The notes beneath the pieces are model-generated. The model was not told where the DNA came from, did not search any database, and was given only the letters and a program-made list of their open reading frames with translations. From assembly GCA_046583095.1 (NCBI GenBank), contig JAYGDB010000008.1, positions 33,164-97,163 on the forward strand: a DNA stretch of 64,000 nt, in the 5' to 3' direction. Both the position numbers and the translations under genes were made by a program. Position 1 is the first letter of the stretch. Every line of letters begins with the position of its first letter. This DNA is from Myxococcota bacterium. GTDB lineage: Bacteria; Myxococcota_A; UBA9160; UBA4427. Shown here piece by piece: positions 8,422 to 40,264 of this stretch.

Positions 8422-8432
8422 GCGCGGAAGCG

Positions 8433-10667: not shown

Positions 10668-10673
10668 AGCCGG

Positions 10674-23014: not shown

Positions 23015-24048
23015 CAGCGCCGGTCTCCCCCCACGCGCACCTCACGTCCCCCCTCGGCGATCGATCGGCTGATGGCATCCAGGGTGCGGACGACGGCAAG
23101 CCCTTCACGTCCGTCGGTGATCGGCACGCCGCCGCTCTCGATGCAGTCGAGGAAGTGATCGCATTCGTTGCGCAGGGGCTGGCTTGCGGGGACCTTCGGA
23201 ACGCTGATGTCGCCATCGCGCACGACCATCCGGAACGTCGCGAAGGAGTCGACGAGCGCGGGATGGCTGCGCTCCTCGGACACCTGCTTGTCGTAGATTC
23301 GCAGGGGCTCGGTCAGGCTGATGTCATCGAAGGTGAGCATCCGCTTCTCACCGACCACGGTGATGTCCCGGGTCTTGCGCGGGTGCAGCCAGGACGCGTG
23401 GAGGTGAACGAGCACGTCATTCGGATACTGGAGGGTCGCAAAGACCGCGTCCTCGACGCCGGGATTGATCCAGGCCGTCCCCCTCGCCGAGACGCTCTCG
23501 GGCTGCGCGTCGAGCCAGTAGCTCGCGAGGGCGATGTCGTGGGATGCCAGATCCCACGCGGCGTTCACGTCCACTCGGATCGGCCCGAGGTTCGTGCGCG
23601 TCATCGAGATGTAGTAGATGCGTCCGAGGTCACCGTCGACCAGATAGCGCTTGGCCTGCTGGGAGGCCGCGTTGAAGACGAAGACGTGGCCGACCATCAG
23701 GATGCGGGCACTGCGCTCCGCGATCTCACACAGAGCCTCGGCGTCGCGAACGCTGTCGGCCATCGGCTTCTCGACCAGCACGTGTCTACCAGCCTCGAGC
23801 GCCTGCCGGGCCAAATCGAAGTGGGTGCTCGTGGGGGTCGCGATCACGACGGCATCAACGGAAGCATCGCCGAATGCGTGGGTGGCATCGTCGCTCACGC
23901 GGATGTCGGGAAAGCGGAGCCCGACGGCCTGCCGGCGGCTGGCATCGCGATCGATCACCCAGGCCACCTCGCTGCGCTGGCGGTCGTGGAAATTCGCGAT
24001 GAGGTTCGGGCCCCAGTGTCCGGCACCGATCACAGCGACGCGGATCAT
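23014..24048 (-). CDS. Gfo/Idh/MocA-family NAD-dependent oxidoreductase (WbpB/GnnA-like nucleotide-sugar dehydrogenase)
   Basis: Track ORF trimmed to ATG 24048 (MIRVAVIGAGHWGPNLIANF) with a GAGAGGA-like RBS. Rossmann N-terminus, EKPMA motif. Confidence 0.85.
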   Translation of the reverse strand: MIRVAVIGAGHWGPNLIANFHDRQRSEVAWVIDRDASRRQAVGLRFPDIRVSDDATHAFGDASVDAVVIATPTSTHFDLARQALEAGRHVLVEKPMADSVRDAEALCEIAERSARILMVGHVFVFNAASQQAKRYLVDGDLGRIYYISMTRTNLGPIRVDVNAAWDLASHDIALASYWLDAQPESVSARGTAWINPGVEDAVFATLQYPNDVLVHLHASWLHPRKTRDITVVGEKRMLTFDDISLTEPLRIYDKQVSEERSHPALVDSFATFRMVVRDGDISVPKVPASQPLRNECDHFLDCIESGGVPITDGREGLAVVRTLDAISRSIAEGGREVRVGGDRR

Positions 24049-24071
24049 GGGTTCCTCTCGATCGGTCGGGC

Positions 24072-24794
24072 TCACTTCTTGAGACGAAGTCCGACGAGCA
24101 GGACCGGCTTCAGGATCGACCACCATCCGACGATCGGCTTCATCTTGGTCTGCCCGATGCGCTTCGGAGGGTAGACCTTCGAAACCGGCTCTTCCAGCGT
24201 GCGATGGCCGAGCTGGATGGCCCGGATGTAGAGGTACGGCTCGAGCGCGTACTCGTCGAGCCACGCTTGATCGAGGTCGAGGCGTTCGTCTTCGAGCACC
24301 CGGCGGTGGACCGCCCGGAAGCCGTTGGTGGACTCCGTCACGCGCCGGCCCGTCACCAGCGAGAAGAGGAGGGGATGGATGCGCGTCGCGATCTTGCGGT
24401 AAAAGGGCATCTCGCCGAAGTCAGCACCCGGCTCGAGAAAGCGCGAGCCCTGAACGAAGTCCGCGCGCCCCTCCGCGATTGGATCCAGGAGGCGCGGGAT
24501 TTCCTCCGGCGAATCCTTGTTGTTCCCCGCCATCACGACCGCGACGTCGTAGCCGCCGCGAAGTGCCTCGGCATAACCGACCCGAAGTGCGGCACCGACC
24601 CCCGCGACGCGTCCCATCGAGATCACCCGTGCACCGCCTTCCCGCGCGACCTCGGCCGATCGGTCCGTCGACCCGTCGTCGATGACGAGCAGGTCGTCGA
24701 CGACGTCTCGAGGAGTACGACGCACGACCTCGCCGATCTTCACCTCCTCGTCGAGAACGGGAGCCATCGCGATCACCCGTAGGCCGCGGTACAC
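24072..24794 (-). CDS. GT2 glycosyltransferase, polyprenol-phosphate sugar synthase type
   Basis: 240 aa, GTG start 3 nt after the upstream stop. VIAMAPVLDEEVKIGEVV, LLVIDDGSTDRS, VVMAGNNKDSPEE, FVQGSRF. Confidence 0.85.
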   Translation of the reverse strand: MYRGLRVIAMAPVLDEEVKIGEVVRRTPRDVVDDLLVIDDGSTDRSAEVAREGGARVISMGRVAGVGAALRVGYAEALRGGYDVAVVMAGNNKDSPEEIPRLLDPIAEGRADFVQGSRFLEPGADFGEMPFYRKIATRIHPLLFSLVTGRRVTESTNGFRAVHRRVLEDERLDLDQAWLDEYALEPYLYIRAIQLGHRTLEEPVSKVYPPKRIGQTKMKPIVGWWSILKPVLLVGLRLKK

Positions 24795-24797
24795 CGT

Positions 24798-26165
24798 CTA
24801 GTCCTCCACCGGCGCCGGCGGCAGATAGCCGAGGGCGCGGAGTCGCTCGACGTCTTCGTCGCTCATCGCATGGGCGGGTACGGGGGTGACCGCCGAGGCC
24901 AGATAGCCGTGGATTTCCGGCGGCAACGGACTTGCAGCGGACTTGCGCCAGCCGCCTTCCACTCGCTCGAAGCGCTGCGGGTGGAGTGGCCGGCCTTGGC
25001 CCAACGGACCCTTACCCAGGATCTTGACGGTCAGGTAGCCCCTCGAATCGTAGGCGCTCAGCTCGTGACCGACGTCGCTCAAGACAACGCGATCGGGCAG
25101 CGGCGCTTCTCCGCGAAGAGCGGGGACGAGCGAGATCCCGCTGGCTGCTTCGAGTTTCGCGAGGCCCGCGAGCTCGAGCAGGGTCGGGGCGATGTCGACG
25201 TGGCTCGTAACACCTTCGATCCGGCGCGGAGCGATGCCGGGCGCTACGACGATGAGCGGCACCAACGCCTGCTCGGGCGTCGTCGTGTGACCGTGCTGGA
25301 AGAAGAAGCCGTTCTCGTCGAGGCTCTCTCCGTGGTCTGCGGTGAGTGCGATCACGGCGTCGTCTCCATCCACCGCCGCCAGGAGCTCGCCCACCCAGTG
25401 ATCCGTGAAGGCGATCTCTCCGGCATACAGGGCCGCGTACCGCGGTGCCCGCCGAATACCGACGAGGGCCTGGTAGCTGGGGATGCCGCCGCGTCCCCGG
25501 TTCACCGGCAGTACGGAAAGCACCCGATCCGTCCGGAGTGGAACCTCATCGACGACGTCCGCCCAGGCGCCGGGCGGGGTGTAGGGACCGTGGGGATCCT
25601 GCAGATGCACCCACAAAAAGAAGGGCCGATCCCGGGGCTGTGCGAGCCAGGCGAGGGCACGCCCCGCGGTGTCGTCCGCAGTTCGTTCGAAGTACTCGCC
25701 GCGATTCGCCTCGCTGGAGGGCAGCAGATCGTCGTAGACGTCGAAGCCTTGATCGAGCCCGGTACGGGTCTTGAGAACGACATTGCTCACGAACGCGGCG
25801 GTGTCGTAGCCCGCCGACCGGAGCGACTCCGCCAACGTCGTTACGCCCGTGAGCCGCGTCGCACCGTTCTCGGAACCCACTGAGTGCTCGCGGACGTAGC
25901 GCGAGGTCATGATCGAGGCGTGGGCGGGAACCGTCGCCGTCGAAGCCGCGATGGCAGTCTCGAAGAGGACGCCCCGGGCCGCCAGAGCGTCCATGTTGGG
26001 AGTGATCTCCCTCGAGAAGCCGTAGCTGTGCACGAAGTCGGCCCGGAGGGTGTCTATCGTGATCAGCAGAACGTCGGGATGCGAGCCAGAGCGTGGACTG
26101 CAGCCCAGCTGAAGGATCGCGGCCAGGAGACCCACGACAGTGATGCAACGGACAGACGACGACAT
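24798..26165 (-). CDS. Sulfatase-fold lipoprotein with Thr-type active-site motif
   Basis: Track ORF trimmed to ATG 26165: MSSSVRCITVVGLLAAILQLGCSP (lipobox LQLGC). DVLLITIDTLRADF, ASTATVPAHASIMTSRY at the CxPxR position, LTADHGESLDENG. Confidence 0.8.
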   Translation of the reverse strand: MSSSVRCITVVGLLAAILQLGCSPRSGSHPDVLLITIDTLRADFVHSYGFSREITPNMDALAARGVLFETAIAASTATVPAHASIMTSRYVREHSVGSENGATRLTGVTTLAESLRSAGYDTAAFVSNVVLKTRTGLDQGFDVYDDLLPSSEANRGEYFERTADDTAGRALAWLAQPRDRPFFLWVHLQDPHGPYTPPGAWADVVDEVPLRTDRVLSVLPVNRGRGGIPSYQALVGIRRAPRYAALYAGEIAFTDHWVGELLAAVDGDDAVIALTADHGESLDENGFFFQHGHTTTPEQALVPLIVVAPGIAPRRIEGVTSHVDIAPTLLELAGLAKLEAASGISLVPALRGEAPLPDRVVLSDVGHELSAYDSRGYLTVKILGKGPLGQGRPLHPQRFERVEGGWRKSAASPLPPEIHGYLASAVTPVPAHAMSDEDVERLRALGYLPPAPVED

Positions 26166-26262
26166 CGACGGCGGGCAGCATACCGCGTCCGGCACGCAGC
26201 TTGCGCGCAACCGGCGAGCCACTTCGCTCGCGGAGCCTTCGGGCTTCGGCGATACTCCTCCC

Positions 26263-27288
26263 GTGACCGAACCCGCGGCAGCAACCGGAGCTTGCGTGCT
26301 CTGCGGAGAACCCGGCACGCCCCTCCATACCCAGTTGAGCGATCGCCTCTTCGACGCGACCGGCACGTGGTCGCTGCTCTCGTGCACCGGCTGCTCACTC
26401 GTATGGCTCGACCCCCGGCCCGAAAACCCCCTCGAACTCTACGACCGCTATTACACCCACGGCCGTGAAGGAGATCCCGAAACCAGCTCGCTGCTTCGGC
26501 GTGCCGTGAATCGCGGCATCCCAGCGGCGCGGATGGGCTATCCGGCGGCGCCGGGTGCGCCTCCCCTCGAGCGATGGCTCGGACAGCTGCTCTCCTGGAT
26601 CGGCCCCCTGCGCGAGATCGCCGAGCACGGCGTGATGTGGCTACCCGTTTCGCGGCGCGGACGGCTGCTCGACGTCGGCTGCGGCTCGGGTCTCTTCCTC
26701 GAACGGATGCGCGACTTCGGCTGGCAGGTCGCGGGCGTCGAGCCGGACGCCCCCGCCGCCAGTGCCGCCGTGCAGCGGTTGGGTGACGACGCCCTCGTCG
26801 TGGCCCACCTCGACGATCCGGCGCTCGCATCGGAATCCTTCGACGCCGTCAGTATGTCCCACGTAATCGAGCACGTGCCCGACCCGATCGGCACACTGAG
26901 CAAGTGCCGCGAGCTGCTGGCACCCGCAGGTACCCTGGTCTGCGTCACCCCGAACACGCGAAGCCTCGGCGTCCGATCCTTTGGCGCGAACTGGCTCCAC
27001 TGGGATCCGCCCCGCCATCTGAACGTCTTCGACCCCGCTTCCCTCGAGCGGACGATCCGGGAAGCCGGATTCGAGGTCGAGCGCGTGGCGACCCCCGGCA
27101 GCACCGCGCACTTCGTCTGGCAGGCCAGCAGCCTGATCGAGCGCCACGGCCGGCTCCCCGACATCGATCTCTCGGGAGTCTCGCCGGCGCTGCTGCTCGA
27201 GAGCATCGGCTTCTGGGCACTCGAGTACCTGCTCACCCGAATCGGTCGCCGCTGCGGTGAGGAGGTCCTCGTGGTGGCGAAGCGGTGA
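26263..27288 (+). CDS. Class I SAM-dependent methyltransferase with N-terminal Cys4 zinc-ribbon
   Basis: CVLCGEPG...CTGCSLVWLDPRP, LLDVGCGSGLFLE, FDAVSMSHVIEHVPDP. Start uncertain: GTG 26263 proposed. The track start 26140/26143 would overlap the divergent lipoprotein signal peptide. Confidence 0.75.
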   Translation: MTEPAAATGACVLCGEPGTPLHTQLSDRLFDATGTWSLLSCTGCSLVWLDPRPENPLELYDRYYTHGREGDPETSSLLRRAVNRGIPAARMGYPAAPGAPPLERWLGQLLSWIGPLREIAEHGVMWLPVSRRGRLLDVGCGSGLFLERMRDFGWQVAGVEPDAPAASAAVQRLGDDALVVAHLDDPALASESFDAVSMSHVIEHVPDPIGTLSKCRELLAPAGTLVCVTPNTRSLGVRSFGANWLHWDPPRHLNVFDPASLERTIREAGFEVERVATPGSTAHFVWQASSLIERHGRLPDIDLSGVSPALLLESIGFWALEYLLTRIGRRCGEEVLVVAKR

Positions 27289-28250
27289 GTTCCGCCCGGG
27301 TCTCGGTCGCGATGGCGACCTGCGACGGCGAGCGGTTCGTCCTCGAGCAGCTCGAGAGCATTGCGAGCCAGAGTCGCCTGCCTGACGAGTTGATCGTCTG
27401 CGACGACGCTTCTCGGGACGATACCTTCGCGCAACTCGAAGCCTTCGCGTCACGCGCCCCCTTCGAGGTTGTCGCCACATGCAATCCAGACCGACTCGGG
27501 ATCACCGCAAATTTCGAGCGCGCCATCTCGGCCTGCAGCGGGGACATCATCTTCCTCGCCGATCAGGACGACGTCTGGCTTCCGGAGAAGATCGCGACCC
27601 TCGCGCCGCTTCTCATAGAGCACCCCGACACGGGAGCCGTGTTCAGCGACGGCGAGATCGTCGATGCAGACGGCCACTCACTCGGCGACTCGCTCTGGCG
27701 TTCTCTCGGCTTCACCCGACGCGAGCAGGAGGCGGTCCGTGGGGGGCGGACCGTCGATGTCTTCCTGCGTCACGTCGTGGCCGCGGGAACGACGATGGCG
27801 TTCCGGTCGAGCCTGCGAGACCTGGCGCTGCCGTTTCCGACGCTTCGGAGTTGCCACGACGCCTTCGTCGCTTTCATCGCGGCCGCGACCTCCCGGGTGG
27901 AGATTGTCCCCGAGCGACTGATCCGGTATCGCCTGCACGGCGCAAACCAGATCGGAATTCGCAACCTCGACGTCTTCGGGCAACTCGCGAAAGCGCGCGA
28001 GCAGATCGAGACGGGAGCCTTTCCATACGCGGTCGAGTTCTTCCAGGCGGCGCGCGACCGGCTCGCGTTGGCGCCGCCCCCGACGCTCATGCAGATCGAC
28101 CAGAAGATCCTCCACGCGAGCCGCCGGGCCAGCATGTCCTCGCGCCTGGGCGGGCGCCTGGGAGCGATCCGACAGGAGATTCAGAGCCGGCGCTACTGGC
28201 GCTACTCGTACGGCTGGAAGAGCGTCGCCCAGGATCTCCTGCTGCGGTGA
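27285..28250 (+). CDS. GT2 glycosyltransferase
   Basis: 321 aa, GTGA overlap with the methyltransferase. VSVAMATCDGERFVLEQLESI, LIVCDDASRDDT, FLADQDDVW. Confidence 0.85.
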   Translation: MSSARVSVAMATCDGERFVLEQLESIASQSRLPDELIVCDDASRDDTFAQLEAFASRAPFEVVATCNPDRLGITANFERAISACSGDIIFLADQDDVWLPEKIATLAPLLIEHPDTGAVFSDGEIVDADGHSLGDSLWRSLGFTRREQEAVRGGRTVDVFLRHVVAAGTTMAFRSSLRDLALPFPTLRSCHDAFVAFIAAATSRVEIVPERLIRYRLHGANQIGIRNLDVFGQLAKAREQIETGAFPYAVEFFQAARDRLALAPPPTLMQIDQKILHASRRASMSSRLGGRLGAIRQEIQSRRYWRYSYGWKSVAQDLLLR

Positions 28251-30253
28251 GGTCTTGGGTCGGCCAGAGCGACCGCGTCTGCGACGCCGCCGTCTGCGGC
28301 TTCGCGGTGTGGACGCTGTGCTGTCACGCAGCCGCCTTCGCCGGCGGTAGCCTGGACACTCTCCTCTGGCTCTTCGCCGTCGGAGTCATCGCCCTGGGGA
28401 CCGCAGCCTGGAAGATGCGCGGGGCGGAGCCGGACCGCGAGGCACCCGGGGACGGCGAAGACTCGAGCGCGCCTGCGGGCTGGCAGCGCGCGTCCGTTGC
28501 AGTCTGGGCGCTGGGCTGCGTGCTGGCCGTCTCCCTCGACGCACCACTCCAACTCGTCTGGCTCGCGGCCGCCGCCCTCGCGATCGGTTTGTCGGCGCGC
28601 GAGCTATTCGCGTCGAAGGCCGAAGACGACCGGTCTCGCGCGCGCGAGACCGGGGTGCTCTGGATCGCAGGTCTCGCAGTCCTGTGCGTCATCATCACGC
28701 TCAGCTCGCATCGGCCGGACGCAGACGACGGCTTCTATTTGAATCTCGCCGTTGCGGCCGCTGAGAATCCGGGCGCCCCGGTGCTCGCGAACGACACGCT
28801 CCATCGGATCCCGGACGTTCCCCTGTCGCTACCCGTGTATCGGACACATTCGCTGGAGCTGCTGCAAGCTGCGCTCTCGCGCATCAGCGGCGCACCCGTC
28901 CTCGACGTCGCACACCTGTGGCTCCCGACGTTGGCGGCGCTGTGGGTGCCCTTCGCCTTCGCCCGCCTGACCCGACGCATCCTTCCTAGAGCGTGGCCCT
29001 GGGCGACCGGAATCTGGCTCGCCGTGCTGCTCTTCGCGGGGACCGCGAGCCACGGCTGGTCGAACTTCGGGCTCGTGCGGCTCCACCAGGGCAAGGCGCT
29101 GCTTCTCACCCTGCTCGCCCCACTCACGATCGCCTACGCGCTCGAATTCGCCCAGAGAGGCGGGGCACGGTCGTGGCTGCGCCTCGCGGCCGTGCAGATC
29201 TGCGCAGTGGGCGTGAGTGCGTCGGGCCTGTGGCTGGCTCCTGCGATGTCGGCAACCGCGCTGCTGGCCGGCGTCCGCAGCGTCGGGGAGGCCGCTTCGC
29301 GCAGGCGTCTCGCGATTGGGCTCGCCGCATCGGCCTACGTGCTCGTTCTCGCCCTGGCATTGCGCGGCGCCACCGTCGCCGCGTTCGAGAACGCGCCGAT
29401 TCAGAGCCCGGAACTCGATCTCTCGAGCCTGAAGCTCGCCACGCAGGCCATGCGCACGGTAATTGGCCCGGGACTCCCCGGCGCCTTTGCGCTCTTCGCG
29501 GCCTTCGGCGCCTGGGCGTTCGCCGAGAGAGCCGTCGCGCGACGACTCTGCGCGTTCTCGGCGGCCGCAACGCTGCTGCTCTGGAACCCGTTCGCCGCTT
29601 CCTTCGTTGCAGCGCACCTCACGAGCGCACCGACCTACTGGCGAATCCTGTGGCTGCTTCCGGTACCGGCGATGATCGCGGTCGTGCTGACGGCCCCGAT
29701 CGAGCGAGGTCTGCCCCCGAAGTCAGCAGCAGCAATCGTGATCGCTGCCACGATCCTTCTCTTCGGTGCCTCAGTGGCCTTCACCCCCAAGGCTCTGGCT
29801 CCTTCGGCTGCGAACCTCGTTCGCATCGCTGCGCCGGGTTGGAAAGTGCCTCCGAGCGAGTTCGACGCGGCCCGTGCGATCGCTGAAGCCAGCTCACCGA
29901 CCGACCGAGTACTCGCCCCCAAGCTCGTCGCACCCTGGGTTCCGACCTTCAGCGGCCATCCGACGCCTCTCGTCGTCCGAATCGAGTACCTCCCGGTGCT
30001 CTACGCCGCACTTGGACCCGAGGAACTGGCTCGTCGAATGCACCTGATGCGCCTGGTCTCCGGGGACCGGCACTCATCGCGTGCCGAGGCGATGCTGCGC
30101 GCTGTCATCCTCGAGGACGGCCTCGCGATCGTGTGCCTCGCGAATGCAGCCAAGCGCTGGCCCAACGTTACGCGCATCCTTGTAGAGACCGGCTTTCAGA
30201 AGATCCACGCGAACGCCGATTACGAAGTGTGGAAGCGGTCGTCTACCCTGTGA
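28247..30253 (+). CDS. Large polytopic membrane protein, GT-C-like, family not recognised
   Basis: Track ORF 27479-30253 trimmed to in-frame GTG 28247 (GTGA overlap). About 668 aa, many TM helices, first loop HRPDADDGFYLNLAVAAAENPG. Confidence 0.6.
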   Translation: MRSWVGQSDRVCDAAVCGFAVWTLCCHAAAFAGGSLDTLLWLFAVGVIALGTAAWKMRGAEPDREAPGDGEDSSAPAGWQRASVAVWALGCVLAVSLDAPLQLVWLAAAALAIGLSARELFASKAEDDRSRARETGVLWIAGLAVLCVIITLSSHRPDADDGFYLNLAVAAAENPGAPVLANDTLHRIPDVPLSLPVYRTHSLELLQAALSRISGAPVLDVAHLWLPTLAALWVPFAFARLTRRILPRAWPWATGIWLAVLLFAGTASHGWSNFGLVRLHQGKALLLTLLAPLTIAYALEFAQRGGARSWLRLAAVQICAVGVSASGLWLAPAMSATALLAGVRSVGEAASRRRLAIGLAASAYVLVLALALRGATVAAFENAPIQSPELDLSSLKLATQAMRTVIGPGLPGAFALFAAFGAWAFAERAVARRLCAFSAAATLLLWNPFAASFVAAHLTSAPTYWRILWLLPVPAMIAVVLTAPIERGLPPKSAAAIVIAATILLFGASVAFTPKALAPSAANLVRIAAPGWKVPPSEFDAARAIAEASSPTDRVLAPKLVAPWVPTFSGHPTPLVVRIEYLPVLYAALGPEELARRMHLMRLVSGDRHSSRAEAMLRAVILEDGLAIVCLANAAKRWPNVTRILVETGFQKIHANADYEVWKRSSTL

Positions 30254-30260
30254 GGACACC

Positions 30261-31226
30261 ATGATCGCCGTCGTCATTCCCTGCTACCGGGTGAAGAGCC
30301 GGATCCTCGACGTCGTGTCCGGGATCGGCCCCGAGTGCCAGGCCATCTACGTGGTCGACGACGGCTGCCCGGAGGGCAGCGGCGACCACGTCGAGGCCGA
30401 ATGCCGGGACCCTCGGGTCCACGTCCTGCGGCACGAGAGAAACCAGGGAGTCGGTGCCGCCACCCTCACTGGCTACCAGGCCGCGCTCGACGGGGGCGCT
30501 GCGGTGATCGTCAAGCTCGACGGCGACGGGCAGATGGATCCCACATGGATCCCGCGCCTGGTGCGGCCCATCCAGGACGGCGAAGCCGACTACGTGAAGG
30601 GAAACCGCTTCTTCGACCTGGGCGATCTCGGTGCAATGCCGCGCGCGCGCGTGCTCGGCAATTCGCTCCTCTCGTTCGCCAGCAAGCTCTCGAGCGGATA
30701 CTGGAACGTCTTCGATCCGACGAACGGCTTCACAGCCATCCACGCCGCGGTGGCCCGCCGGCTTCCCCTTGCAAAGCTCTCGAAGGGCTACTTCTTCGAA
30801 TCGGACCTGCTCTTCCGCCTCGGCATCCTCCGCGCCGTGGTCTGCGAGGTTCCGATGCCCGCCGTCTACCAGGATGAGCCCAGCAGCCTGGTGATCCGAC
30901 GGGTGATCTTCCAGTTCGCAGGTAGGCACTTCGTCAACACCTTCAAGCGGATCTTCTACAGCTATTACCTGCGCAACTTCAACATCGCCTCGATCGAGAT
31001 CCTGGCCGGCCTGGCCTTCCTCGCTTTCGGTGTGTGGTTCGGCACTTCCGAGTGGATCGACGGCATCCGAGCGAACGTTCCCGCCACCAGTGGCACCGTG
31101 ATGGTCGCAGCCCTGCCCGTGATCGTCGGAGTTCAGCTCATCCTCGCGTTCCTGAGCTACGACCTGCAGAACGTGCCCCGCGAGATCCTGCATCGGCGTC
31201 TGGAGCCCGCGCCGTCGAAGGTTTGA
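30261..31226 (+). CDS. GT2 glycosyltransferase with C-terminal TM helices (GtrB/ArnC/DPM1-like polyprenol-phosphate glycosyltransferase)
   Basis: 321 aa; MIAVVIPCYRV, IYVVDDGCPEGSG, NQGVGAATLTGY, KLDGDGQMDP, DYVKGNRF; two C-terminal TM segments; GAGGA RBS. Confidence 0.85.
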   Translation: MIAVVIPCYRVKSRILDVVSGIGPECQAIYVVDDGCPEGSGDHVEAECRDPRVHVLRHERNQGVGAATLTGYQAALDGGAAVIVKLDGDGQMDPTWIPRLVRPIQDGEADYVKGNRFFDLGDLGAMPRARVLGNSLLSFASKLSSGYWNVFDPTNGFTAIHAAVARRLPLAKLSKGYFFESDLLFRLGILRAVVCEVPMPAVYQDEPSSLVIRRVIFQFAGRHFVNTFKRIFYSYYLRNFNIASIEILAGLAFLAFGVWFGTSEWIDGIRANVPATSGTVMVAALPVIVGVQLILAFLSYDLQNVPREILHRRLEPAPSKV

Positions 31227-31228
31227 CG

Positions 31229-32230
31229 GTGAGGCGCGCGACCGGGCTCCTGCTGCGCGCGGCCGTGGCTCTGGCAGGGCTGGCGCTGGCGTTCCGGCTT
31301 GCCCTGCCCGCAGGTGAAGACTCCGTCGTCGCCTCCCTGCTCTCGGCCTGGCAGGTGCCCGTGGGCGAAGCGCTTCTCTGGTTCGGCGTCGCCGTGGTGC
31401 TCCTCGGCGCGAACCTGGGGATCGGGGCCCTTCGCTTCCGCGGGCTGCTGCGCGGCGCGGGCCTGCACATCGACCTCGGCACCCTGGCTCGCGCCTACCT
31501 GGTTGCGTCCTTCTTCAACCTCGTCCTCCCGGGGGCAATGCTCGGCGACGTCTACCGCTTCTGGGACGCTCGGCGCGACACCGGCGAGGGCTCGCGGGTG
31601 CTGGCTGTCGTAGTCCTGGAGCGACTCCTCTCCCTCGCGGCGCTCGGGGCCATCGCGCTTGCGGTGGCACCGGTGATTCCGTCACTTCACGAAGACCGGC
31701 AGCTGTTGCTGTGGCTCGTCCTTGCGGGCGGATCCTTCGTCGTGGTCGCGATCGGCGTGCTGCTGCCGAGGGTGAACCAAGTGTTGCGGAGAATCGCGCA
31801 CAGCCTCGGTCGTTTCCACGAATCCCTATCGACCACCGGCGTGCGCGCACTCGAGGCCGTCGGCTCGCTCGCGTCGAAACCCGCTGTCGTCTCACGCGCA
31901 TTCGGATGGAGCCTCGTCAACCAGGCTCTCCCGGTGCTCGCCCTTGTCGTCCTGGCGATTCCCCTCGACGCCTGGGTGCCTTGGTACTGGTTCGCCGTCA
32001 TCGTGCCCTTCGTGACCCTCGTATCGCTGCTTCCGATCAGCATCGGCGGAACGGGCGTCCGGGAGGTCCTCTACGTGTCACTCTTCGGAGCCGTCGGAAT
32101 GCGCGCCGATGTCGCGCTGGCCCTGTCCCTGTCGGTACTCGCGGCTGCCCTCATCTGGGGCGGCATCGGGCTGGCCGTATTCGCCGTGGGACGTCGTGGC
32201 GATTCGTCGCTGGCAACGACGGAGGGGTGA
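31229..32230 (+). CDS. Flippase-like membrane protein (LPG_synthase_TM / UPF0104-type)
   Basis: Track ORF trimmed to GTG 31229 (or TTG 31223), directly after the GT2 stop. FFNLVLPGAMLGDVYRFWDARR and VLERLLSLAALG resemble this family. Confidence 0.7.
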   Translation: MRRATGLLLRAAVALAGLALAFRLALPAGEDSVVASLLSAWQVPVGEALLWFGVAVVLLGANLGIGALRFRGLLRGAGLHIDLGTLARAYLVASFFNLVLPGAMLGDVYRFWDARRDTGEGSRVLAVVVLERLLSLAALGAIALAVAPVIPSLHEDRQLLLWLVLAGGSFVVVAIGVLLPRVNQVLRRIAHSLGRFHESLSTTGVRALEAVGSLASKPAVVSRAFGWSLVNQALPVLALVVLAIPLDAWVPWYWFAVIVPFVTLVSLLPISIGGTGVREVLYVSLFGAVGMRADVALALSLSVLAAALIWGGIGLAVFAVGRRGDSSLATTEG

Positions 32231-33132
32231 CGTTGGCCTTCCTCGGCATCGCGATCCCGTTCTACCGAAACGTCTCCTACCTCCGGACCGCGATCGAGAG
32301 CGTCACCGAGCAGTCGTCATCCGATTGGCGGTTGTGGGTGCTGGATGACTCCGGTGGAAACGAGCCCGAGGAGACGGTCCGGCAGCTGATCGCGTCCTTC
32401 GACGACGACCGGATCCGCTACCACCGAAACCCCGAGACGGTCGGCATGGCCGCGAACTGGAACCACTGCCTCGACTCGGCGGATACCGAGTTCATCACCC
32501 TGCTGCACGGCGACGACCGCCTCCTCCCGAACTACCTGGATGCGATCCAACGCGTCGCCCGTGCCCATCCGCAGGCGGTGGCCGTCTATTGCGATACGAC
32601 GATCATCGGCGCCTCGGGCGAGACTGAGTTCTCCCTGGCCGACCGGGTCAAGGGCTTCTTCTCACCAGGAGGCAGTGGCGAGGTAGTGCTCACCGGCCAG
32701 CCGGCAGCGACTGCGCTCATGCGTGGCAATTTCATCATGTGCCCCACCCTGAGCTTCCGTCGTTCCTTGCTCGGAGCGCGGCGCTTCGACGCCGGTTGGG
32801 AGCAGGTGCAAGACCTCGATCTGACGCTGCGGCTGCTGATGGATGGCGAGACGTTGGTCGGTGCCGCGGAGATCGCCTACGCGTACCGGCGCCACCCGGA
32901 GAGTGCGACATGGGTACAATCCCAGAATCGCCTCCGCTTCGACGAGGAGTTTCGGCTCTTCGACCAGATCGCGGCGCGCGCAGAAGCGCTCGGCTGGAGC
33001 GAGACGGCTCGCGTCTCGCGCCGCAAGCGGATTGTGAAGCTACACCTCGCGTACCGGGCGCTCCGGGCCTTCGCCAGGCTGCAACCGCGAAGCGCCGTCG
33101 AGACCCTGCGCTACCTGCGCTCCCGCTGGTAG
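32227..33132 (+). CDS. GT2 glycosyltransferase
   Basis: Track ORF trimmed to GTG 32227 (GTGA overlap). LGIAIPFYRNVSYLRTAIESV, WVLDDSGGNE, TLLHGDDRLLPNY. Confidence 0.85.
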   Translation: MTLAFLGIAIPFYRNVSYLRTAIESVTEQSSSDWRLWVLDDSGGNEPEETVRQLIASFDDDRIRYHRNPETVGMAANWNHCLDSADTEFITLLHGDDRLLPNYLDAIQRVARAHPQAVAVYCDTTIIGASGETEFSLADRVKGFFSPGGSGEVVLTGQPAATALMRGNFIMCPTLSFRRSLLGARRFDAGWEQVQDLDLTLRLLMDGETLVGAAEIAYAYRRHPESATWVQSQNRLRFDEEFRLFDQIAARAEALGWSETARVSRRKRIVKLHLAYRALRAFARLQPRSAVETLRYLRSRW

Positions 33133-34724
33133 GGCCCGTCGCGCCGCGTCCAGAACGTGCCGGAGCGAATCTGGGCGCCGGAGATTGGAACCAGGACCGT
33201 CACGTCCTCGAAGAGCCACCCCTTCATCTCGTAGTGGCGCTCGAGCAGACCGTCGGGCAGGTAGTTGCGAAGGAAGGCCGTGTTGCTGTCGATGACGACG
33301 GCAAAGCGCTTCTCGCGAATCGCACGCGTGTACGACTCGCGCAGCTCCTCGGCGTCCGCGAGGCCACTCTTCGCGTAGTCGGCGACAGGCATCTGATGCG
33401 CGAAGACGCGCTTTCCCGCGCGTCCCGCCAGGTAACCCTGGACGGGCATCAGCACCTCACCCTCGATTCCGGCTACCCGGGCCGCTAGGGCATTTCCAGC
33501 GCGACGATCGGCTTCGGTCGGCAGGATTCCGTCCGGCACCCGCATCAGGAGGGCTAGTTGCAACAGCAGACCCGCCGCCACCATGACCGCCACCGCCGCC
33601 GATCGTTCAGGGGATACGACAGCGCGGATACGAGCGATCGAGACCCCCAGCACGACAGCCAGCCAGGCGTGGGCCGGGATCAGATTGTTGGCAGCGCCGC
33701 CGACCTTGATACGCGGAATCAGGCAGGCCAGCAGCACGCAGACGAGGACGAGGAGATGGAAGCCGTCCCACTCGTCCTGCTGGCGGCGCCGAAGAACCAG
33801 CCACAAGAGGGGCGCCAGGCTGAGGACCGGCACCGAGAGCAGGAGATCGCGCCAGAGGAACCAGCCCACCATGTGGGGAAGGATCCCGTGCTGCTGCTGG
33901 GCGCCTACGATGTGCAGCAGGAAGTGCTCCTCGAGGATCCCGTTCAGGAGCCCGGTCGCAGTCCCGACGAGCGCTGCGAGCACCAACCCGTACGCGATGA
34001 AGCGATCCCACTCCCGAAAGCGTCCGAGATCTCGCTTGGTCGCCTTCCAGTCCGCCCAGGCGCACCACAGGGCCAGCGGTGCCACCACGACGACGGCGGT
34101 CTGCTTCGTCATCACGGCCAGGAAGGCCAACACCGCTGCGAGCACGAGATCCGAGCGTCCCTGCGCAAAACGAAACCGGTAGAGGGAAGCGAGCAGCAGG
34201 AAGGTGAAGAGGGAGTCGAGCCGGGCGACGTCGAAATAGAGCCCGGAGGCTCGCCATGTCGCCAGGAAGATGCCGGCGGCAATCGCGCCGAAGACCACGC
34301 GGCCCGTCTCCCGGCGCACGAATCGATGCACGATCCAGGCCGTGCCGAGGGAGGCGGCTAGGGAGATGATCCGCAGGGGAAGAAGGCCCGGCCCCGTGAG
34401 CTTGGAGACGATCGCACCCAGGTAGTAGTAGAAGGGCGGGTACGGGAAGGGAACGAACTCGATGGACGGCCTGACGTAGAGGGGGTCTCCGCGTAGCACC
34501 CGCATCAGGTGCTCGAGAGATCCCCCCTCCATCCACTCGAGTTCGAACGGATACGTGAGGCGCTGAAGCGAAGAACCGAGGTAGAGCGCCGCGAAGCCCA
34601 CAGACGCGACGACGCAAGCTGCCAGGATGGTGCGTTCGAGGCGCTCGGACACCGCGCAAGGGTATCGCAGCAGCGTTGACAGACGCGGCATGACCGGGGT
34701 CGATCGCCTACTTTCCGAGACCAT
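33111..34724 (-). CDS. GT39/ArnT-like GT-C membrane protein
   Basis: 537 aa (alternative start ATG 34691). YPFELEWMEGGSLEHLMRVLRGDPLYVRPSIEFVPFPYPPFYYYLG, polytopic. 22-nt convergent overlap with the GT2 at 32227-33132. Confidence 0.7.
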   Translation of the reverse strand: MVSESRRSTPVMPRLSTLLRYPCAVSERLERTILAACVVASVGFAALYLGSSLQRLTYPFELEWMEGGSLEHLMRVLRGDPLYVRPSIEFVPFPYPPFYYYLGAIVSKLTGPGLLPLRIISLAASLGTAWIVHRFVRRETGRVVFGAIAAGIFLATWRASGLYFDVARLDSLFTFLLLASLYRFRFAQGRSDLVLAAVLAFLAVMTKQTAVVVVAPLALWCAWADWKATKRDLGRFREWDRFIAYGLVLAALVGTATGLLNGILEEHFLLHIVGAQQQHGILPHMVGWFLWRDLLLSVPVLSLAPLLWLVLRRRQQDEWDGFHLLVLVCVLLACLIPRIKVGGAANNLIPAHAWLAVVLGVSIARIRAVVSPERSAAVAVMVAAGLLLQLALLMRVPDGILPTEADRRAGNALAARVAGIEGEVLMPVQGYLAGRAGKRVFAHQMPVADYAKSGLADAEELRESYTRAIREKRFAVVIDSNTAFLRNYLPDGLLERHYEMKGWLFEDVTVLVPISGAQIRSGTFWTRRDGPYQRERR

Positions 34725-36222
34725 GGACGCGACCCCTCGCGGATCGCGAAGCGGCTCTCGGATCGCACTGCTCGTCGGCTGCGCGAGCTTCCTCTTCTTC
34801 CTGCTTCTCCAACACGGTCACTTCAAGGGAAGCGACGAACTCGCGGTCTACGAGATGAGCCGCTCGATCCTCGAGAACGGCGACCTCGCCGTTCCGCCAC
34901 TCCGGCACACCGAGGTCGGTGCGGACGGCCGGCGCTACAGCTACTTCGCGCCCGGCCAGTCGGTCCTCGCGCTCCCGCTGTTCGCGCTGGCCGAGCCCCT
35001 GGGCGCCGTACTGCCCACCGCCTGGAGCGAAGCGCTGGCCGGCCCTCCGAATCGGCGTGGCGCCTACCGCTTCGGAGGCGAACTCGAAGCCACCCTGGTG
35101 GGCCTCTTCGGACCGCTCTCTGCCGCAGCGCTGATCGCGCTCTTCTTCGTGTTCCAGCTCGATCTCGGAGTCTCTCCTCGCCGCGCGGTGATCGTCGCCC
35201 TGCTCGTCGCGATGTCGACCCACACCGCGGTGATGTCCGCATATTTCTTGCGGCACACCACCGAGGCAATCACCCTACTGGGCGCGCTGCTCCTCTTCCG
35301 GCGTTTCAGCCAGTCCGGCTCCCTCAAGACCCTTGGCATCGGCAGCGCCCTCGCGTCCCTCACGCTTCTCATCCGGGTTCCCGCCGCGATCGCGGCGCCG
35401 ACCCTGGCCAGCTACCTCGTGTGGGTGCTCTACCAGCGCGGCGAGTGGCGCATGGGCGGCGCTCGGTTCGCCGGCATCCTCGCGGCCATCCTGATGCCGC
35501 TCGGGATCGCCCTCGCGATCCATGTCGGCATCAGCGAAGCGAAGTGGGGAAGCTGGCTGATTTCGCCGATGGTCGAGCAGCAGGGCCGCTTCAACAATCC
35601 CCTGCTGCGCGGCCTCGCCGGTCTGCTGCTGAGCCCGGGATCGAGCATCTTCGTGTACTCACCGCTGCTGCTGCTTGCCCCGTTCGGACTCACCAGGCTG
35701 TGGCGCCGGGAACGCGCCCTGGCGGCGGCGGCCCTCGCCCTGACCGCCACCTGGCTGCTCTTCTACGCGCGCTTCGACGGTTGGAGTGGCCTCTGGTCGG
35801 CGCCCGGCCCGCGCTACCTGTTCCTGCTCGTTCCCCTGCTGCTGCTCCCGCTTGGCCTGTGGCTCGACTCGCCACGACGCTGGGCGGCCGCTTCGCTGCT
35901 CGCGGTCGCGGGGTTGTTCGTTCAGCTGGTCTCGACGCTGGTCCGCTGGGGATCCGTGCCCGGCCTCGCCGATTATCCGATTCTCGGACCCGACCAGGCG
36001 GACTTCCTCTTCCAGATCTCGCGCAGCCCCGTCCTAGTCATGACCGGGCTGCTGGCAAGCGGCGGCCCGATCGACTCCTGGCTGTGGAACCTGTGGCACG
36101 GGTGGGAGGGCTTCGCAGGACAGCCTGGCGCGGTCGTCGCGCTTCTCGGCCTCTGGACTGCGGCGGCGAGCGTCTGCGGAATCGGGCTCCGGCGCGCGCT
36201 GCGCGCAACGCGGGCCAGCTGA
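34723..36222 (+). CDS. Polytopic membrane protein, GT-C-like
   Basis: Start ATG 34723 (alternatives 34690, 34627). HFKGSDELAVYEMSRSILENGDLAVPP...YSYFAPGQSVLALPLFALAEPLG; about 12 predicted TM helices. Confidence 0.55.
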   Translation: MDATPRGSRSGSRIALLVGCASFLFFLLLQHGHFKGSDELAVYEMSRSILENGDLAVPPLRHTEVGADGRRYSYFAPGQSVLALPLFALAEPLGAVLPTAWSEALAGPPNRRGAYRFGGELEATLVGLFGPLSAAALIALFFVFQLDLGVSPRRAVIVALLVAMSTHTAVMSAYFLRHTTEAITLLGALLLFRRFSQSGSLKTLGIGSALASLTLLIRVPAAIAAPTLASYLVWVLYQRGEWRMGGARFAGILAAILMPLGIALAIHVGISEAKWGSWLISPMVEQQGRFNNPLLRGLAGLLLSPGSSIFVYSPLLLLAPFGLTRLWRRERALAAAALALTATWLLFYARFDGWSGLWSAPGPRYLFLLVPLLLLPLGLWLDSPRRWAAASLLAVAGLFVQLVSTLVRWGSVPGLADYPILGPDQADFLFQISRSPVLVMTGLLASGGPIDSWLWNLWHGWEGFAGQPGAVVALLGLWTAAASVCGIGLRRALRATRAS

Positions 36223-36223
36223 G

Positions 36224-37933
36224 GTGCCCGCGACCCCTGATCGGCGGGCCACTGCAGTCGCCCTCGTAGGCGTCACCTGCGCCGCCCTGTTGGCGGGCAG
36301 CGCCCTGCTACGGCCGGGCTTTTACGACTCTCACGACGGCCTCCTCAACGTCCACCGGCTCTTCGAGTTCGAGAAGTGCCTGGCCGATGGCCAGATCCCC
36401 TGCCGCTGGGTTCCCGACATGGGCGCCGGCTACGGCTACCCGCTCTTCAATTTCTATCCGCCGCTTCCGACCGCAGTGGCAGAGGGCTTCCGGCTGCTCG
36501 GCGCCTCGTTGCTCGACGCCATCAAATGGGCGTTCCTGCTGGGACTCGTCGTCGGGGCCCTCGGGATGTTCCGCCTGGCCTCCAGGTTCTTTGGTCCAGC
36601 AGGCGCAGTGCTCGCCGCGGTCCTCTACGTGTTCGCTCCCTACCAGGCCATCGACGTCTTCGTGCGGGGCGCTCTCGGCGAAGCGTGGGGAATGGCGCTC
36701 CTCCCGTTCGTCTTCTTGACAGGCCACCGCTGCCTCACCGAGCCGGGACGAGCCCTCCGTCACGCGCTCCCGTGCGCGCTCTCCTGGGCGGCCCTGCTCC
36801 TCACGCACGACATCGTCGCCTTGATGGCCACCCCGTTCTACGCGGCCTGGTTGTGGGTCAGCTGGCGGACGAGTCGTCGGAGCCCGGGCCCTGCCGTGCT
36901 GGCGCATGCGCTCGCGCTGGGGCTTTCGGCGTTCTTCCTACTGCCGCTCGCGTTCGAGCTGCACCACGTCCACGCCGACACCCTCACTCAGCTGTATCCC
37001 TGGGCACGTTTCGAGAACAACTTCCTCTCCGTGACCCAGCTGCTCGGCGCTCCGAGAGCCTGGGGATACGGCGCCCTCGGCTCTCACAACCCGATGTCCC
37101 TCTTCATCGGCCGGCTCCACTTCCTCCTCGGTGCCGGGGCGATCGGGATATGCGCAATTGCCTGGCTGCGGGAACGGCGAGTCGACACCAGCGGGGCCGC
37201 GGCGCTGACGCTGGGGTCGGCGGCACTCGTGGCCGCGTTCATGATCCTGCCGGCATCGCGCTTCGTCTGGGAGGCGACCCCACCCCTCTCGTTCCTGCAG
37301 TTCCCGTGGCGCTTTCTCGCGATCACGAGCTTCGGCCTCGCGTTTGCCGCCGGCTGGCTCGTGTACTGGACCCGCAACCGCGGCCCCATCCCGCTGGCGA
37401 TCGTCGCCGTCGCGACGATCGCCGCGATCGCCACGAGCTGGGGTTGGTTCCGCCCGTCGGCGATGCACGTCGTACAGGAGCAGGTGCTGGCAAACGAGTG
37501 GGAGATCGCGAAGGCCCGCCACGGACTCTTCGACTTCCTGCCGCGCAGCGTCGATCTCGAGCACTTCCTCGCGAGCCCGCCGGCGCCGCTGCCGCCGCCG
37601 GTCCACGCGCCACCGGGTGTAAGCCTGAGCAAGCTAGAGCGAACCACGAATCGAATCGGCTTCGATGCCCGGGTCCGCGGCGACGAGACGGCGCGGGTTC
37701 GAATCAACGTGTTCGACTTCCCGGGCTGGACCCTCGAGGTCGATGGCCGGCCTGAAAACTTCGCGGCAAGCGACGACCCACTCGGCCGACTCCACCTCAG
37801 CCTGGCGCCGGGCAGCCATAGGGTCGTAGTGCGCTTCGAGAACACGCCGATCCGATCCCTCGCGAACGCCGTCTCCCTCCTCTCGCTCGTCGCGGCCCTC
37901 CTCTGGACGGCCGCCATCATCCGGTCGCGGTAG
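36224..37933 (+). CDS. PTPS-related (6-pyruvoyl-tetrahydropterin-synthase-related domain) integral membrane protein
   Basis: 569 aa, GTG start 1 nt after the upstream stop. YDSHDGLLNVHRLFEFEKCLADGQIPCRWVPDMGAGYGYPLFNFYPPLP matches the N-terminal signature of that family as I recall it. Confidence 0.65.
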   Translation: MPATPDRRATAVALVGVTCAALLAGSALLRPGFYDSHDGLLNVHRLFEFEKCLADGQIPCRWVPDMGAGYGYPLFNFYPPLPTAVAEGFRLLGASLLDAIKWAFLLGLVVGALGMFRLASRFFGPAGAVLAAVLYVFAPYQAIDVFVRGALGEAWGMALLPFVFLTGHRCLTEPGRALRHALPCALSWAALLLTHDIVALMATPFYAAWLWVSWRTSRRSPGPAVLAHALALGLSAFFLLPLAFELHHVHADTLTQLYPWARFENNFLSVTQLLGAPRAWGYGALGSHNPMSLFIGRLHFLLGAGAIGICAIAWLRERRVDTSGAAALTLGSAALVAAFMILPASRFVWEATPPLSFLQFPWRFLAITSFGLAFAAGWLVYWTRNRGPIPLAIVAVATIAAIATSWGWFRPSAMHVVQEQVLANEWEIAKARHGLFDFLPRSVDLEHFLASPPAPLPPPVHAPPGVSLSKLERTTNRIGFDARVRGDETARVRINVFDFPGWTLEVDGRPENFAASDDPLGRLHLSLAPGSHRVVVRFENTPIRSLANAVSLLSLVAALLWTAAIIRSR

Positions 37934-37944
37934 AATCCCCGCTC

Positions 37945-40220: not shown

Positions 40221-40264
40221 ACTACAGTTGGGCCTCTCCCCTGGATGCCCCCGCTTCCGAGAGC

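Follow-up and report, generated by a model that had tools for sequence, protein, structure and literature searches.

A six-gene chain with a DUF6077 membrane protein as a candidate extracytoplasmic glycosylation module in an uncultured Myxococcota bacterium

The window analysed here is a 64-kb stretch of DNA (64,000 nucleotides, nt) from a Myxococcota bacterium (assembly GCA_046583095.1, contig JAYGDB010000008.1, positions 33,164 to 97,163). It contains a chain of six plus-strand genes. They encode a methyltransferase (gene 1), a glycosyltransferase of family 2 (GT2; gene 2), a membrane protein of 668 amino acids (aa) from the DUF6077 family (gene 3), a second GT2 (gene 4), a flippase-like membrane protein (gene 5) and a third GT2 (gene 6). 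All coordinates are positions in the window, and the junctions were read directly from the letters (Table 1). Designations such as L007 stand for the public loci used in the comparisons.

Table 1. The chain, its control elements and the surrounding genes.
Feature	Coordinates	Strand	Evidence and remarks
Divergent operon: sulfatase-family protein, DPMS/AglJ-like short GT2, GFO oxidoreductase, DegT aminotransferase, AglB/STT3-like enzyme	19725..26135	-	Pfam, NCBIfam
Divergent intergenic region, 127 bp, candidate promoter region of the chain	26136..26262	.	Between the minus-strand sulfatase/AglB-like operon and gene 1
Gene 1: class I SAM (S-adenosylmethionine)-dependent methyltransferase, 341 aa, soluble	26263..27288	+	Pfam Methyltransf_23, 110 bits
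Gene 2: soluble GT2, GT-A fold, 321 aa	27285..28250	+	Pfam Glycos_transf_2, 68 bits; GTGA overlap with gene 1
Gene 3: polytopic membrane protein, 668 aa, predicted GT-C fold, C-terminal extracytoplasmic domain	28247..30253	+	Pfam DUF6077; GTGA overlap with gene 2
Shine-Dalgarno sequence GAGGA for gene 4	30252-30256	+	Overlaps the stop codon of gene 3; 4-nt spacer to ATG 30261
Gene 4: polyprenyl-phosphate glycosyltransferase-type GT2, 321 aa	30261..31226	+	Pfam GT2, 72.7 bits; two C-terminal transmembrane helices
Gene 5: PF03706 / UPF0104 / PplT membrane protein, 333 aa	31229..32230	+	Pfam LPG_synthase_TM, 118.5 bits (cutoff 33.4)
Gene 6: soluble GT2, 299 aa from TTG 32233 (301 aa if GTG 32227)	32233..33132	+	Pfam Glycos_transf_2, 68.7 bits
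PMT_2/GT87 GT-C	33111-34691	-	Family matches
Putative glycosyltransferase, LA_3751 family, and other downstream GT-C-like or large membrane genes	33111..42253 overall	.	Conserved in L007, L008
Large membrane protein	34723-36222		
YfhO/PTPS-like protein	36224-37933		
Third DPMS-like GT2	37945-38694		
AftB-like protein	38679-40220	-	
660-aa unknown	40265-42253		

The six genes and their junctions

An earlier sequence-only reading of the window had described the six genes as a chain stitched together by GTGA overlaps. The chain and its junctions lie where it placed them, and a plot of GC content by codon position changes frame exactly at each junction. The tetranucleotide GTGA occurs at 27285-27288, 28247-28250 and 32227-32230. 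The overlaps of genes 1 and 2 and of genes 2 and 3 stand. At the third site GTGA is present, but gene 6 probably starts at TTG 32233. The stop codon of gene 3 (TGA, 30251-30253) is followed after a 7-nt gap by the ATG of gene 4 at 30261, and the gap with its GAGGA is there as read before. The same applies to the two candidate starts of gene 5. Gene 4 ends with TGA at 31224-31226, and the open reading frame (ORF) 31034..32230 includes both TTG 31223 and GTG 31229 in frame.

The GC content of the window is 65-69%. Mechanical ORF lists are therefore full of spurious long ORFs, which codon-position GC resolves. The starts of genes 1, 3, 5 and 6 lie inside longer mechanical ORFs (26140..27288, 27479..30253, 31034..32230 and 31711..33132, respectively). 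The sequence-only reading had said that three of the internal starts were hidden in this way. This is true for genes 3, 5 and 6, and also for gene 1. GC at third codon positions is 0.81-0.87 in the six genes, but only 0.46-0.49, read in the same frames, in the stretches by which the longer ORFs extend genes 3, 5 and 6 upstream. These extensions are non-coding.

A longest-ORF caller would fail on this chain, whereas standard callers do not. The same DNA is present in nine public contigs (ENA, NCBI GCA_004566355.1, Logan). Their gene calls give 321, 668, 321 and 333 aa for genes 2-5, which matches the starts read earlier. The earlier concern about mis-starts in automated annotation was thus not borne out for genes 2-5. 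Called and earlier-read lengths differ only for gene 1 (382 aa called, 341 aa read) and gene 6 (299 and 301 aa, respectively).

The start of gene 1 is most likely GTG 26263, as already read, because the call in L007 is 341 aa and conservation starts at this codon even in L014 and L015. A start at 26140, as called in L001 (382 aa), seems less likely. For gene 2, GTG 27285 is the first in-frame start codon and precedes the GT-A beta-1 strand. For gene 5, GAAGG at 31217-31221 leaves a 7-nt spacer to GTG 31229, and the public calls give 333 aa; this GTG seems preferable to TTG 31223. The start of gene 6 is most likely TTG 32233 rather than GTG 32227. The GGAGG at 32221-32225 leaves a spacer of 7 nt to the TTG and of only 1 nt to the GTG, and public calls in L001, L003 and L007, which are identical or related contigs, give 299 aa. 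Genes 5 and 6 would then be separated by a 2-nt gap, with no overlap.

GTGA is not enriched across the window (196 found, about 186 expected). What goes beyond chance is not its frequency, but its placement at the frame switches together with the tight junctions kept in relatives. The junction spacings are -4, -4, +7, +2 and +2 nt in L007, -4, -4, +67, +16 and -4 in L008, -4, -4, +5, +13 and -4 in L045, and -4 and -4 in L046. The surrounding gene island has 13 same-strand junctions. Five of them measure -4 or -1 nt if gene 6 starts at TTG 32233, and six if it starts at GTG 32227; the rest are at most 23 nt. Outside the chain, 4-nt overlaps join the methyltransferase/PMT_2, PMT_2/DLH and AglB/DegT pairs, and DegT and GFO overlap by 1 nt. 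Overlapping or abutting genes are the norm at this locus, and the architecture is ordinary for a high-GC bacterium.

Two motifs of the intergenic region upstream of gene 1, GGCAGCATACCGCGT and TTCGGCGATACT, are kept across five loci whose proteins are only 50-85% identical. The second contains GATACT (26251-26256), which ends 6 nt before GTG 26263, and no Shine-Dalgarno sequence is found there. This hexamer may be a -10 element of a leaderless gene 1 mRNA. A scan of 25500-34000 for the sigma-70 consensus gave no site, and this consensus cannot speak for Myxococcota promoters. A sigma-54 promoter in the conserved motif was considered by eye and dropped, because the distance between its GG and GC elements deviates by one. 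Across the whole window, scans for tRNAs and for Rfam families (gathering threshold) gave no match.

The interior of the chain has only one weak terminator-like site, and the terminator-like count is below chance (2 found vs 3.0 expected). Nothing promoter-like was found there either, so no internal promoter or terminator appears to split the chain. The genes are on the same strand, overlap or abut, show no internal terminators and keep their order in relatives. We infer one translationally coupled operon with a single transcript. At its distal end, the chain runs into the convergent PMT_2/GT87 gene: the 3' ends of this gene and of gene 6 share 22 nt (33111-33132), which leaves no room for a terminator between the two genes.

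Families and predicted folds of the encoded proteins

Pfam bears out the domains that had been assigned to all six genes: Methyltransf_23, GT2, a membrane protein, GT2, LPG_synthase_TM and GT2.

Gene 3 matches Pfam DUF6077 (PF19554) with 62.0 bits (cutoff 27), and all 35 of 35 homologues carry this domain. The family has 3618 clusters at 50% identity in a profile search (E<=1e-3), and our literature search found no papers on it. A sequence search of gene 3 against the PDB gave no match even at E<=10, and only the fold search was informative. An AlphaFold2 model built from a 28-sequence alignment has a pLDDT of 90.3 and a pTM of 0.92. In the Foldseek PDB search with this model, 17 of the top 20 matches are GT-C enzymes at a probability of 1.00 (yeast and human STT3, AftA, DPY19, PglB, AglB), and EmbA follows at rank 34 (probability 0.93). 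AftA, DPY19 and Emb score as well as STT3. At the level of the predicted fold, gene 3 is confirmed as GT-C-like, with all credible structural matches being GT-C glycosyltransferases. The earlier description of the 668-aa protein as GT-C-like is upheld, as no credible match leads to a non-glycosyltransferase family.

The conserved residues of gene 3 fit this fold. R156, D160 and D161 of the motif HRPDADDxFYLN are invariant in 28 homologues, down to 24% identity; D183, E204 and R278/Q281/G282/K283 are also invariant. The motif sits just after the fifth transmembrane (TM) segment. By the positive-inside rule, the loops 56-81 and 118-136 are cytoplasmic, and residues 153-225 are therefore predicted to face outward. 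The protein would thus have both the GT-C fold and conserved acidic residues in a predicted extracytoplasmic loop at the membrane interface. The acidic motif comes after five TM helices, not one, which implies four extra N-terminal helices. In the model, residues ~515-668 form an α/β domain outside the membrane. The credibly matched GT-C enzymes all take donors linked to polyprenyl phosphate or diphosphate, and the donor of gene 3 would be of this kind; the DPMS-like GT2 directly downstream in many DUF6077 loci (see below) is indirect evidence. By BLASTP, gene 3 has no detectable paralogy with the other large membrane proteins of the island, and in DUF6077 proteins of greater length (800-1075 aa) no further Pfam domain is present.

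Gene 4 is closest in the PDB, by sequence, to the dolichol-phosphate-mannose synthase (DPMS) of Pyrococcus furiosus (5mlz; E 1.6e-10, residues 2-229), and then to ArnC. Its residues D87-G-D89-G-Q91 align to the DxDxQ motif (DADLQ) of these enzymes. By hydropathy, TM segments lie at ~242-260 and ~273-298, which is the architecture of GtrB and ArnC. These three features substantiate the name GtrB-like that gene 4 had been given. It has a paralogue in the island, the short AglJ/DPMS/PpgS-like GT2 at 24072-24794 (36% identity, E 6e-21). Across its best 120 clusters, the identity is at least 69%. Gene 4 is 83-86% identical to loci whose gene 3 is only 52-58% identical. A similar gradient is seen in L008, L013, L014, L016 and L026, where gene 4 has 72-86% identity, gene 3 39-58% and gene 5 48-69%. 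Close homologues are abundant in metagenomes, with at least 7958 among 8000 candidates at E<=1e-3. The homologues consist of the GT2 domain alone, and the Rosetta-stone search found no fusion partner.

Gene 5 has ~8 hydrophobic segments, and its AlphaFold2 model has a pLDDT of 85.5. The six best Foldseek PDB matches are all MprF (7duw, 9goe, 9j8q, 9j8s, 7f47 and 6lvf; probability 1.00, TMq 0.44-0.60), and the model confidently matches MprF structures only. The protein is thus predicted to have the fold of the MprF flippase domain. With the Pfam score, this supports the earlier assignment as a flippase-like LPG_synthase_TM protein. Proteins of PF03706 are predicted flippases, and in Haloferax AglD the domain is fused to a GT2 (PMC5898192). 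In archaea, the neighbours of PF03706 genes are AglD-like GT2 and PMT/STT3-like genes (PMC5898192). A preprint on PplT also lists GT-A/PplT fusions. In our Rosetta-stone search, the 120 closest homologues of gene 5 are all single-domain PF03706 proteins without fusions, so the GT2-PF03706 fusion rests on the literature (AglD). A literature search for LPG_synthase_TM together with glycosyltransferase found no papers.

The three remaining proteins have no TM segments. Gene 1 has an N-terminal CxxC...CxxC (Cys4-like) motif, and its PDB relatives are generic small-molecule or sugar O-methyltransferases. It is deleted in two related MAGs (metagenome-assembled genomes), L014 (~8900-9000) and L015 (~1650-1750), aligned to window positions 26263-26330. 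A remnant of the first ~15 codons (VTE.A...C.LC) is left there between the promoter-like motif and gene 2. The PDB relatives of gene 2 are SpsA-type and polymer-building GT2s, and its NCBIfam profile match to haloarchaeal AglG is weak. Genes 2 and 6, both with the GT-A fold, are distantly paralogous.

Conserved neighbourhoods and the surrounding island

We scanned the GTDB species representatives and obtained 32 DUF6077 loci, all of them in MAGs. Their gene neighbourhoods were compared by competitive tblastn, for which all the island proteins served as queries. The hosts of these loci are Myxococcota, Acidobacteriota, Spirochaetes, Planctomycetes, Binatia, Methylomirabilota and others. Of the loci, 27 have at least 900 nt of downstream sequence, and in 12 of them (raw count) the next gene, on the same strand, codes for a DPMS-like GT2. 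These 12 loci span Myxococcota, Acidobacteriota, Spirochaetes, Binatia and others. Within 5 kb, such a GT2 is present in 15 of the 27 loci and absent from 12.

Three homologues of gene 5 (~50% identity) lie on long contigs, L045, L046 and L047. In all three, the order is a gene-4-like GT2 (~320-340 aa), PF03706 and a gene-6-like GT2 (~300-340 aa), and a Methyltransf_23 gene is adjacent. A GT2 always comes after the gene 5 homologue in these loci and in L026. GT-C genes are near in two of the three (DUF6077 and GT87 in L045, PMT_2 in L047). Three lineages of MAGs share the chain and the whole island around it in synteny, namely L007 (Myxococcota), L008/L013 (Deltaproteobacteria bacterium OFTM107) and L014.

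From these comparisons, the chain is the union of two conserved, overlapping modules. One is DUF6077 with a DPMS-like GT2; the other is the methyltransferase, GT2, PplT and GT2. The sequence-only reading had seen a single expanded Gtr unit, which does not hold: the two modules are conserved separately and lie inside a much larger glycosylation island.

Other DUF6077 genes stand in different settings. In Micromonospora (L010, 8001-10142), DUF6077 lies beside teichoic-acid genes (Glyphos_transf, a TagGH-like ABC transporter, TarI/J-like). In L011 (6022-10004), a tandem pair of DUF6077 genes lies beside sulfotransferase, PAPS (3'-phosphoadenosine-5'-phosphosulfate)-synthesis and Wzx genes. Both contexts would fit a role in the modification of extracytoplasmic glycopolymers.

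The island of envelope-glycosylation genes is ~28 kb long (~13.7-42.3 kb of the window). The divergent operon at 19725..26135 adjoins the chain also in L007, L008/L013 and L014. Further upstream are a methyltransferase, a PMT_2 GT-C and an epimerase. The island has three DPMS-like GT2s (24072-24794, 30261-31226 and 37945-38694). Its large polytopic membrane proteins number up to eight. Five of them match GT-C-type families or relatives of these (PMT_2 twice, the LA_3751 family, YfhO/PTPS-like and AftB-like), and the remaining three are the AglB-like protein, the DUF6077 protein and the 660-aa unknown.

The AglB/STT3-like protein (731 aa, 19725-21920, minus strand) reaches 240 bits against archaeo_STT3 TIGR04154 (cutoff 450) and matches PF18079 (AglB_L1). 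Its gene lies 4 kb from the chain and is conserved along with it. The protein keeps the N-terminal catalytic motifs GDAQYH, LDHH (as DxH) and GEQLPLF. However, in the alignment to Archaeoglobus fulgidus AglB (3wai), the WWDYG sequon-binding position is occupied by HANLG. L007, L008 and L014 keep the replacement in the form (S/A)H(A/P)N(L/F)G, and L009 has CTPSLG at this position. The protein may be a transferase of the STT3 type whose acceptor is non-canonical. The gene lies outside the chain and is the more unusual item of the two. L009 (168-3476) is a more distant DUF6077 locus, where an AglB-like gene is directly beside an exosortase gene (EpsH); this mirrors the association of archaeosortase A with the oligosaccharyltransferase (OST) in archaea. 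Literature searches on bacterial AglB, on Myxococcota or on exosortase-linked OSTs found only archaeal papers. A search on the WWDYG motif of AglB and PglB in Deltaproteobacteria found only work on antibody glycosylation in E. coli by a single-subunit OST.

The window also has bacterial housekeeping genes (UvrD/PcrA, GlmS, GlmU, HflX, FabH and MutS2). A haloarchaeal origin, suggested by 67% GC and the AglB, AglJ and AglG matches, was rejected because of UvrD/PcrA, HflX, FabH and MutS2, and because proteins identical or nearly identical to those of the window carry the label of a Myxococcota MAG. At 5641-13718, two large tetratricopeptide repeat (TPR) proteins are followed by a 1014-aa fusion of a membrane domain of the major facilitator superfamily type with a spermidine-synthase-like domain. 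A Spermine_synth+TPR protein is also found in L046 (11616-12999), near its GT2-PplT-GT2 triplet.

A proposed glycosylation module, its alternatives and its meaning

We think it somewhat probable that the six genes are a translationally coupled operon whose core is an extracytoplasmic glycosylation module of the three-component type. In this proposal, gene 4 would work at the cytoplasmic face and load a sugar, taken from a nucleotide sugar, onto polyprenyl (undecaprenyl) phosphate. Gene 5 would move the lipid-linked sugar over to the periplasmic leaflet, and gene 3 would pass the sugar to an acceptor glycan or glycoconjugate in the periplasm. Genes 1, 2 and 6, for the methyltransferase and the two soluble GT2s, would work in the cytoplasm; their substrate would be either this lipid-linked intermediate or the lipid-linked glycan that the surrounding island builds. 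The proposal builds on the observed gene structure, the family, fold and motif assignments, the conserved synteny and the predicted topology. From them we infer the carrier lipid, the sugar, the flipping and the acceptor.

The sequence-only reading had already seen a lipid-linked sugar synthase, a flippase and a periplasmic transferase here. Family, fold and synteny largely support this, whereas gene 6 and the methyltransferase stay unexplained by a simple Gtr logic. Indeed, a three-component model needs neither the conserved extra GT2 nor the methyltransferase. Several other points weigh against the proposal. Among the 32 DUF6077 loci, only the 4 of the closest clade have a gene 5 homologue, and the GT2-flippase-GT2 triplet of L046 has no GT-C gene within 6 kb; the partnership of genes 3 and 5 is therefore not obligatory. 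The Foldseek TM-scores of gene 3 are moderate (0.36-0.43). Gene 4 can be assigned to a family type and not to a specificity, as no equivalog cutoff is reached: the best NCBIfam matches are AglJ (60.8 vs 325 bits), PpgS (56 vs 370) and ArnC (25.8 vs 529). Gene 5 is below the cutoff of TIGR00374 (31.1 vs 43.2 bits). The characterised substrates of its fold are phospholipids, and in the family literature flipping by stand-alone PF03706 proteins is not known to have been demonstrated (PMC12713373, PMC5898192). Besides, every relative is a MAG or a metagenome contig.

Another reading follows the archaeal style of assembly on polyprenyl monophosphate, and we consider it possible although unlikely. 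The chain would then be an oligosaccharide assembly line, not a module that decorates with a single sugar. Gene 4 would prime like Haloferax AglJ, genes 2 and 6 would extend like AglG, AglI and AglE, and gene 1 would methylate like AglP. A short lipid-phosphate-oligosaccharide would be flipped by gene 5 and transferred en bloc by gene 3 or by the AglB/STT3-like enzyme. This would explain better the joint travel of the methyltransferase, GT2, flippase-like and GT2 genes. It would also account better for the missing phosphoglycosyltransferase, as the scan of the large window ORFs gave neither PF00953 nor PF02397; still, a priming enzyme could sit outside the 64-kb window. AglJ is the top NCBIfam match of gene 4 and of the GT2 at 24072-24794, and gene 2 points weakly to AglG, but all the Agl-family matches are far below the equivalog cutoffs. 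The AglB/STT3-like gene is near and kept with the chain, yet its product is without the WWDYG motif. In addition, DUF6077 is mostly paired with a single DPMS-like GT2 alone, which is a better fit to the transfer of a single sugar.

Extended to the whole locus, and just as tentatively, the chain could be one arm of an archaeal-style glycosylation in uncultured Myxococcota. AglJ/DPMS-like GT2s would prime on polyprenyl monophosphate, as no phosphoglycosyltransferase was found in the window ORFs that were scanned. GT2 and methyltransferase extension and PplT-type flipping would follow, and the AglB/STT3-like enzyme would deliver to an acceptor other than the canonical N-X-S/T sequon, since WWDYG has given way to (S/A)H(A/P)N(L/F)G. 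In the periplasm, the product would be decorated by DUF6077 together with up to six further GT-C-like enzymes.

It is rather improbable that the genes are co-transcribed for an envelope polysaccharide with no dedicated relay. Gene 3 would then be a ligase or polymerase on polyprenyl-diphosphate-linked units, as an OST or an O-antigen ligase, and would work independently of genes 4 and 5. The best fold matches, STT3/PglB-type OSTs, do use diphosphate-linked donors; however, AftA, DPY19 and Emb, which use phosphate-linked monosaccharides, score equally. DUF6077 genes without a DPMS-like GT2 exist beside teichoic-acid (Micromonospora), Wzx and sulfotransferase genes, and 12 of the 27 loci have none within 5 kb. 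On the other side, the immediately downstream position of this GT2 in another 12, from several phyla, is hard to explain without a functional link.

Even more improbable, in our view, is that genes 4-6 and gene 1 make and flip a membrane glycolipid, with gene 3 as a mere neighbour. The product would be a glycosylated, perhaps methylated, phospholipid or diacylglycerol. The phospholipid substrates of the MprF flippase fold speak for it. So do the L046 triplet, which has no GT-C gene nearby, and GpgF (UPF0104), a predicted flippase of glucosaminyl-phosphatidylglycerol (PMC12713373). Nevertheless, the catalytic domain of gene 4 is closest to DPMS and ArnC, not to the GT4 enzyme GpgS, and the chain has no deacetylase. 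Across phyla, gene 3 is also linked to DPMS-like GT2s, and its junctions with adjacent genes are overlapping or abutting in the window as well as in L007, L008 and L045.

The three-component module that we favour resembles several known systems. In the GtrA/GtrB/Gtr* (GtrC) systems of Shigella and Salmonella phages, which glucosylate the O-antigen, a two-TM GT2 makes a polyprenyl-phosphate sugar, and a presumed flippase and a periplasmic GT-C-type transferase complete the set (PMC11127046). However, the chain has no small GtrA-family flippase (~120 aa, 4-TM), and PF03706/MprF-fold gene 5 would take that role. The gaps between the six genes are at most 7 nt, which leaves no room for a GtrA-type gene. 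Its transferase is DUF6077, it has two extra soluble GT2s and a methyltransferase, and it is chromosomal within a glycosylation island rather than phage-borne. The likeness to GtrA/GtrB/GtrC that was first noticed therefore stands for the way of working, not for membership.

Three-component systems are established, and their flippase family varies (SMR/GtrA-like, MATE or Wzx-like; PMC11127046, PMC8035078). ArnC/ArnEF/ArnT, CsbB/GtcA/YfhO, PpgS/Rv3632/Rv3779 and the Citrobacter GT136 system, which has a MATE flippase, all combine a polyprenyl-phosphate-sugar synthase, a flippase and a GT-C transferase (PMC11127046, PMC8035078). Gene 4 matches ArnC and PpgS, whereas the flippase family (PF03706) and the GT-C family (DUF6077) of the chain are unlike those of all these systems.

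The same three families of parts were predicted to act jointly in the archaeal AglD-type module (arCOG00897 GT2, arCOG00899 UPF0104 and arCOG00563 PMT/STT3-like; Haloferax AglD/AglR/AglS) (PMC5898192). Makarova et al. 2015 predicted this combination of GT2, PF03706 and PMT/STT3-like GT-C for archaea (PMC5898192). An AglB/STT3-like gene is near our chain too. However, the chain is bacterial (Myxococcota), its GT2 and flippase-like proteins are separate genes, and its GT-C partner is labelled DUF6077. GpgSDF, for glucosaminyl-phosphatidylglycerol in Pseudomonas, and HexSDF of Clostridioides difficile likewise join a cytoplasmic glycosyltransferase and a UPF0104/PplT predicted flippase in an operon (PMC12713373). 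They use a GT4 and a deacetylase on a phospholipid or glycolipid and have no GT-C, whereas the chain has a DPMS-like GT2 and a GT-C gene. With MprF, gene 5 shares the flippase-domain fold and the Pfam family; in contrast, it is only 333 aa long, lacks the aminoacyl-phosphatidylglycerol synthase domain and falls under the TIGR00374 cutoff.

The chain is an ordinary kind of bacterial system made from partly uncharacterised parts. What is new here is modest: the chain is a bacterial example with DUF6077 in the place of the GT-C, the predicted fold gives evidence that DUF6077 belongs to GT-C, and synteny gives evidence for a partner that supplies the donor. If the proposal is true, the widespread DUF6077 family (~3600 clusters) gains a testable function: its members would act as GT-C transferases in the periplasm, with the donor made by a polyprenyl-phosphate-sugar synthase from a neighbouring gene. 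Both the methyltransferase–GT2–PplT–GT2 core and the pair of DUF6077 and GT2 are compact enough for heterologous expression, which could serve to study the flipping of lipid-linked sugars. Likewise, the bacterial stand-alone MprF-like (PplT/UPF0104) proteins would flip lipid-linked sugars, an activity so far predicted only for archaea.

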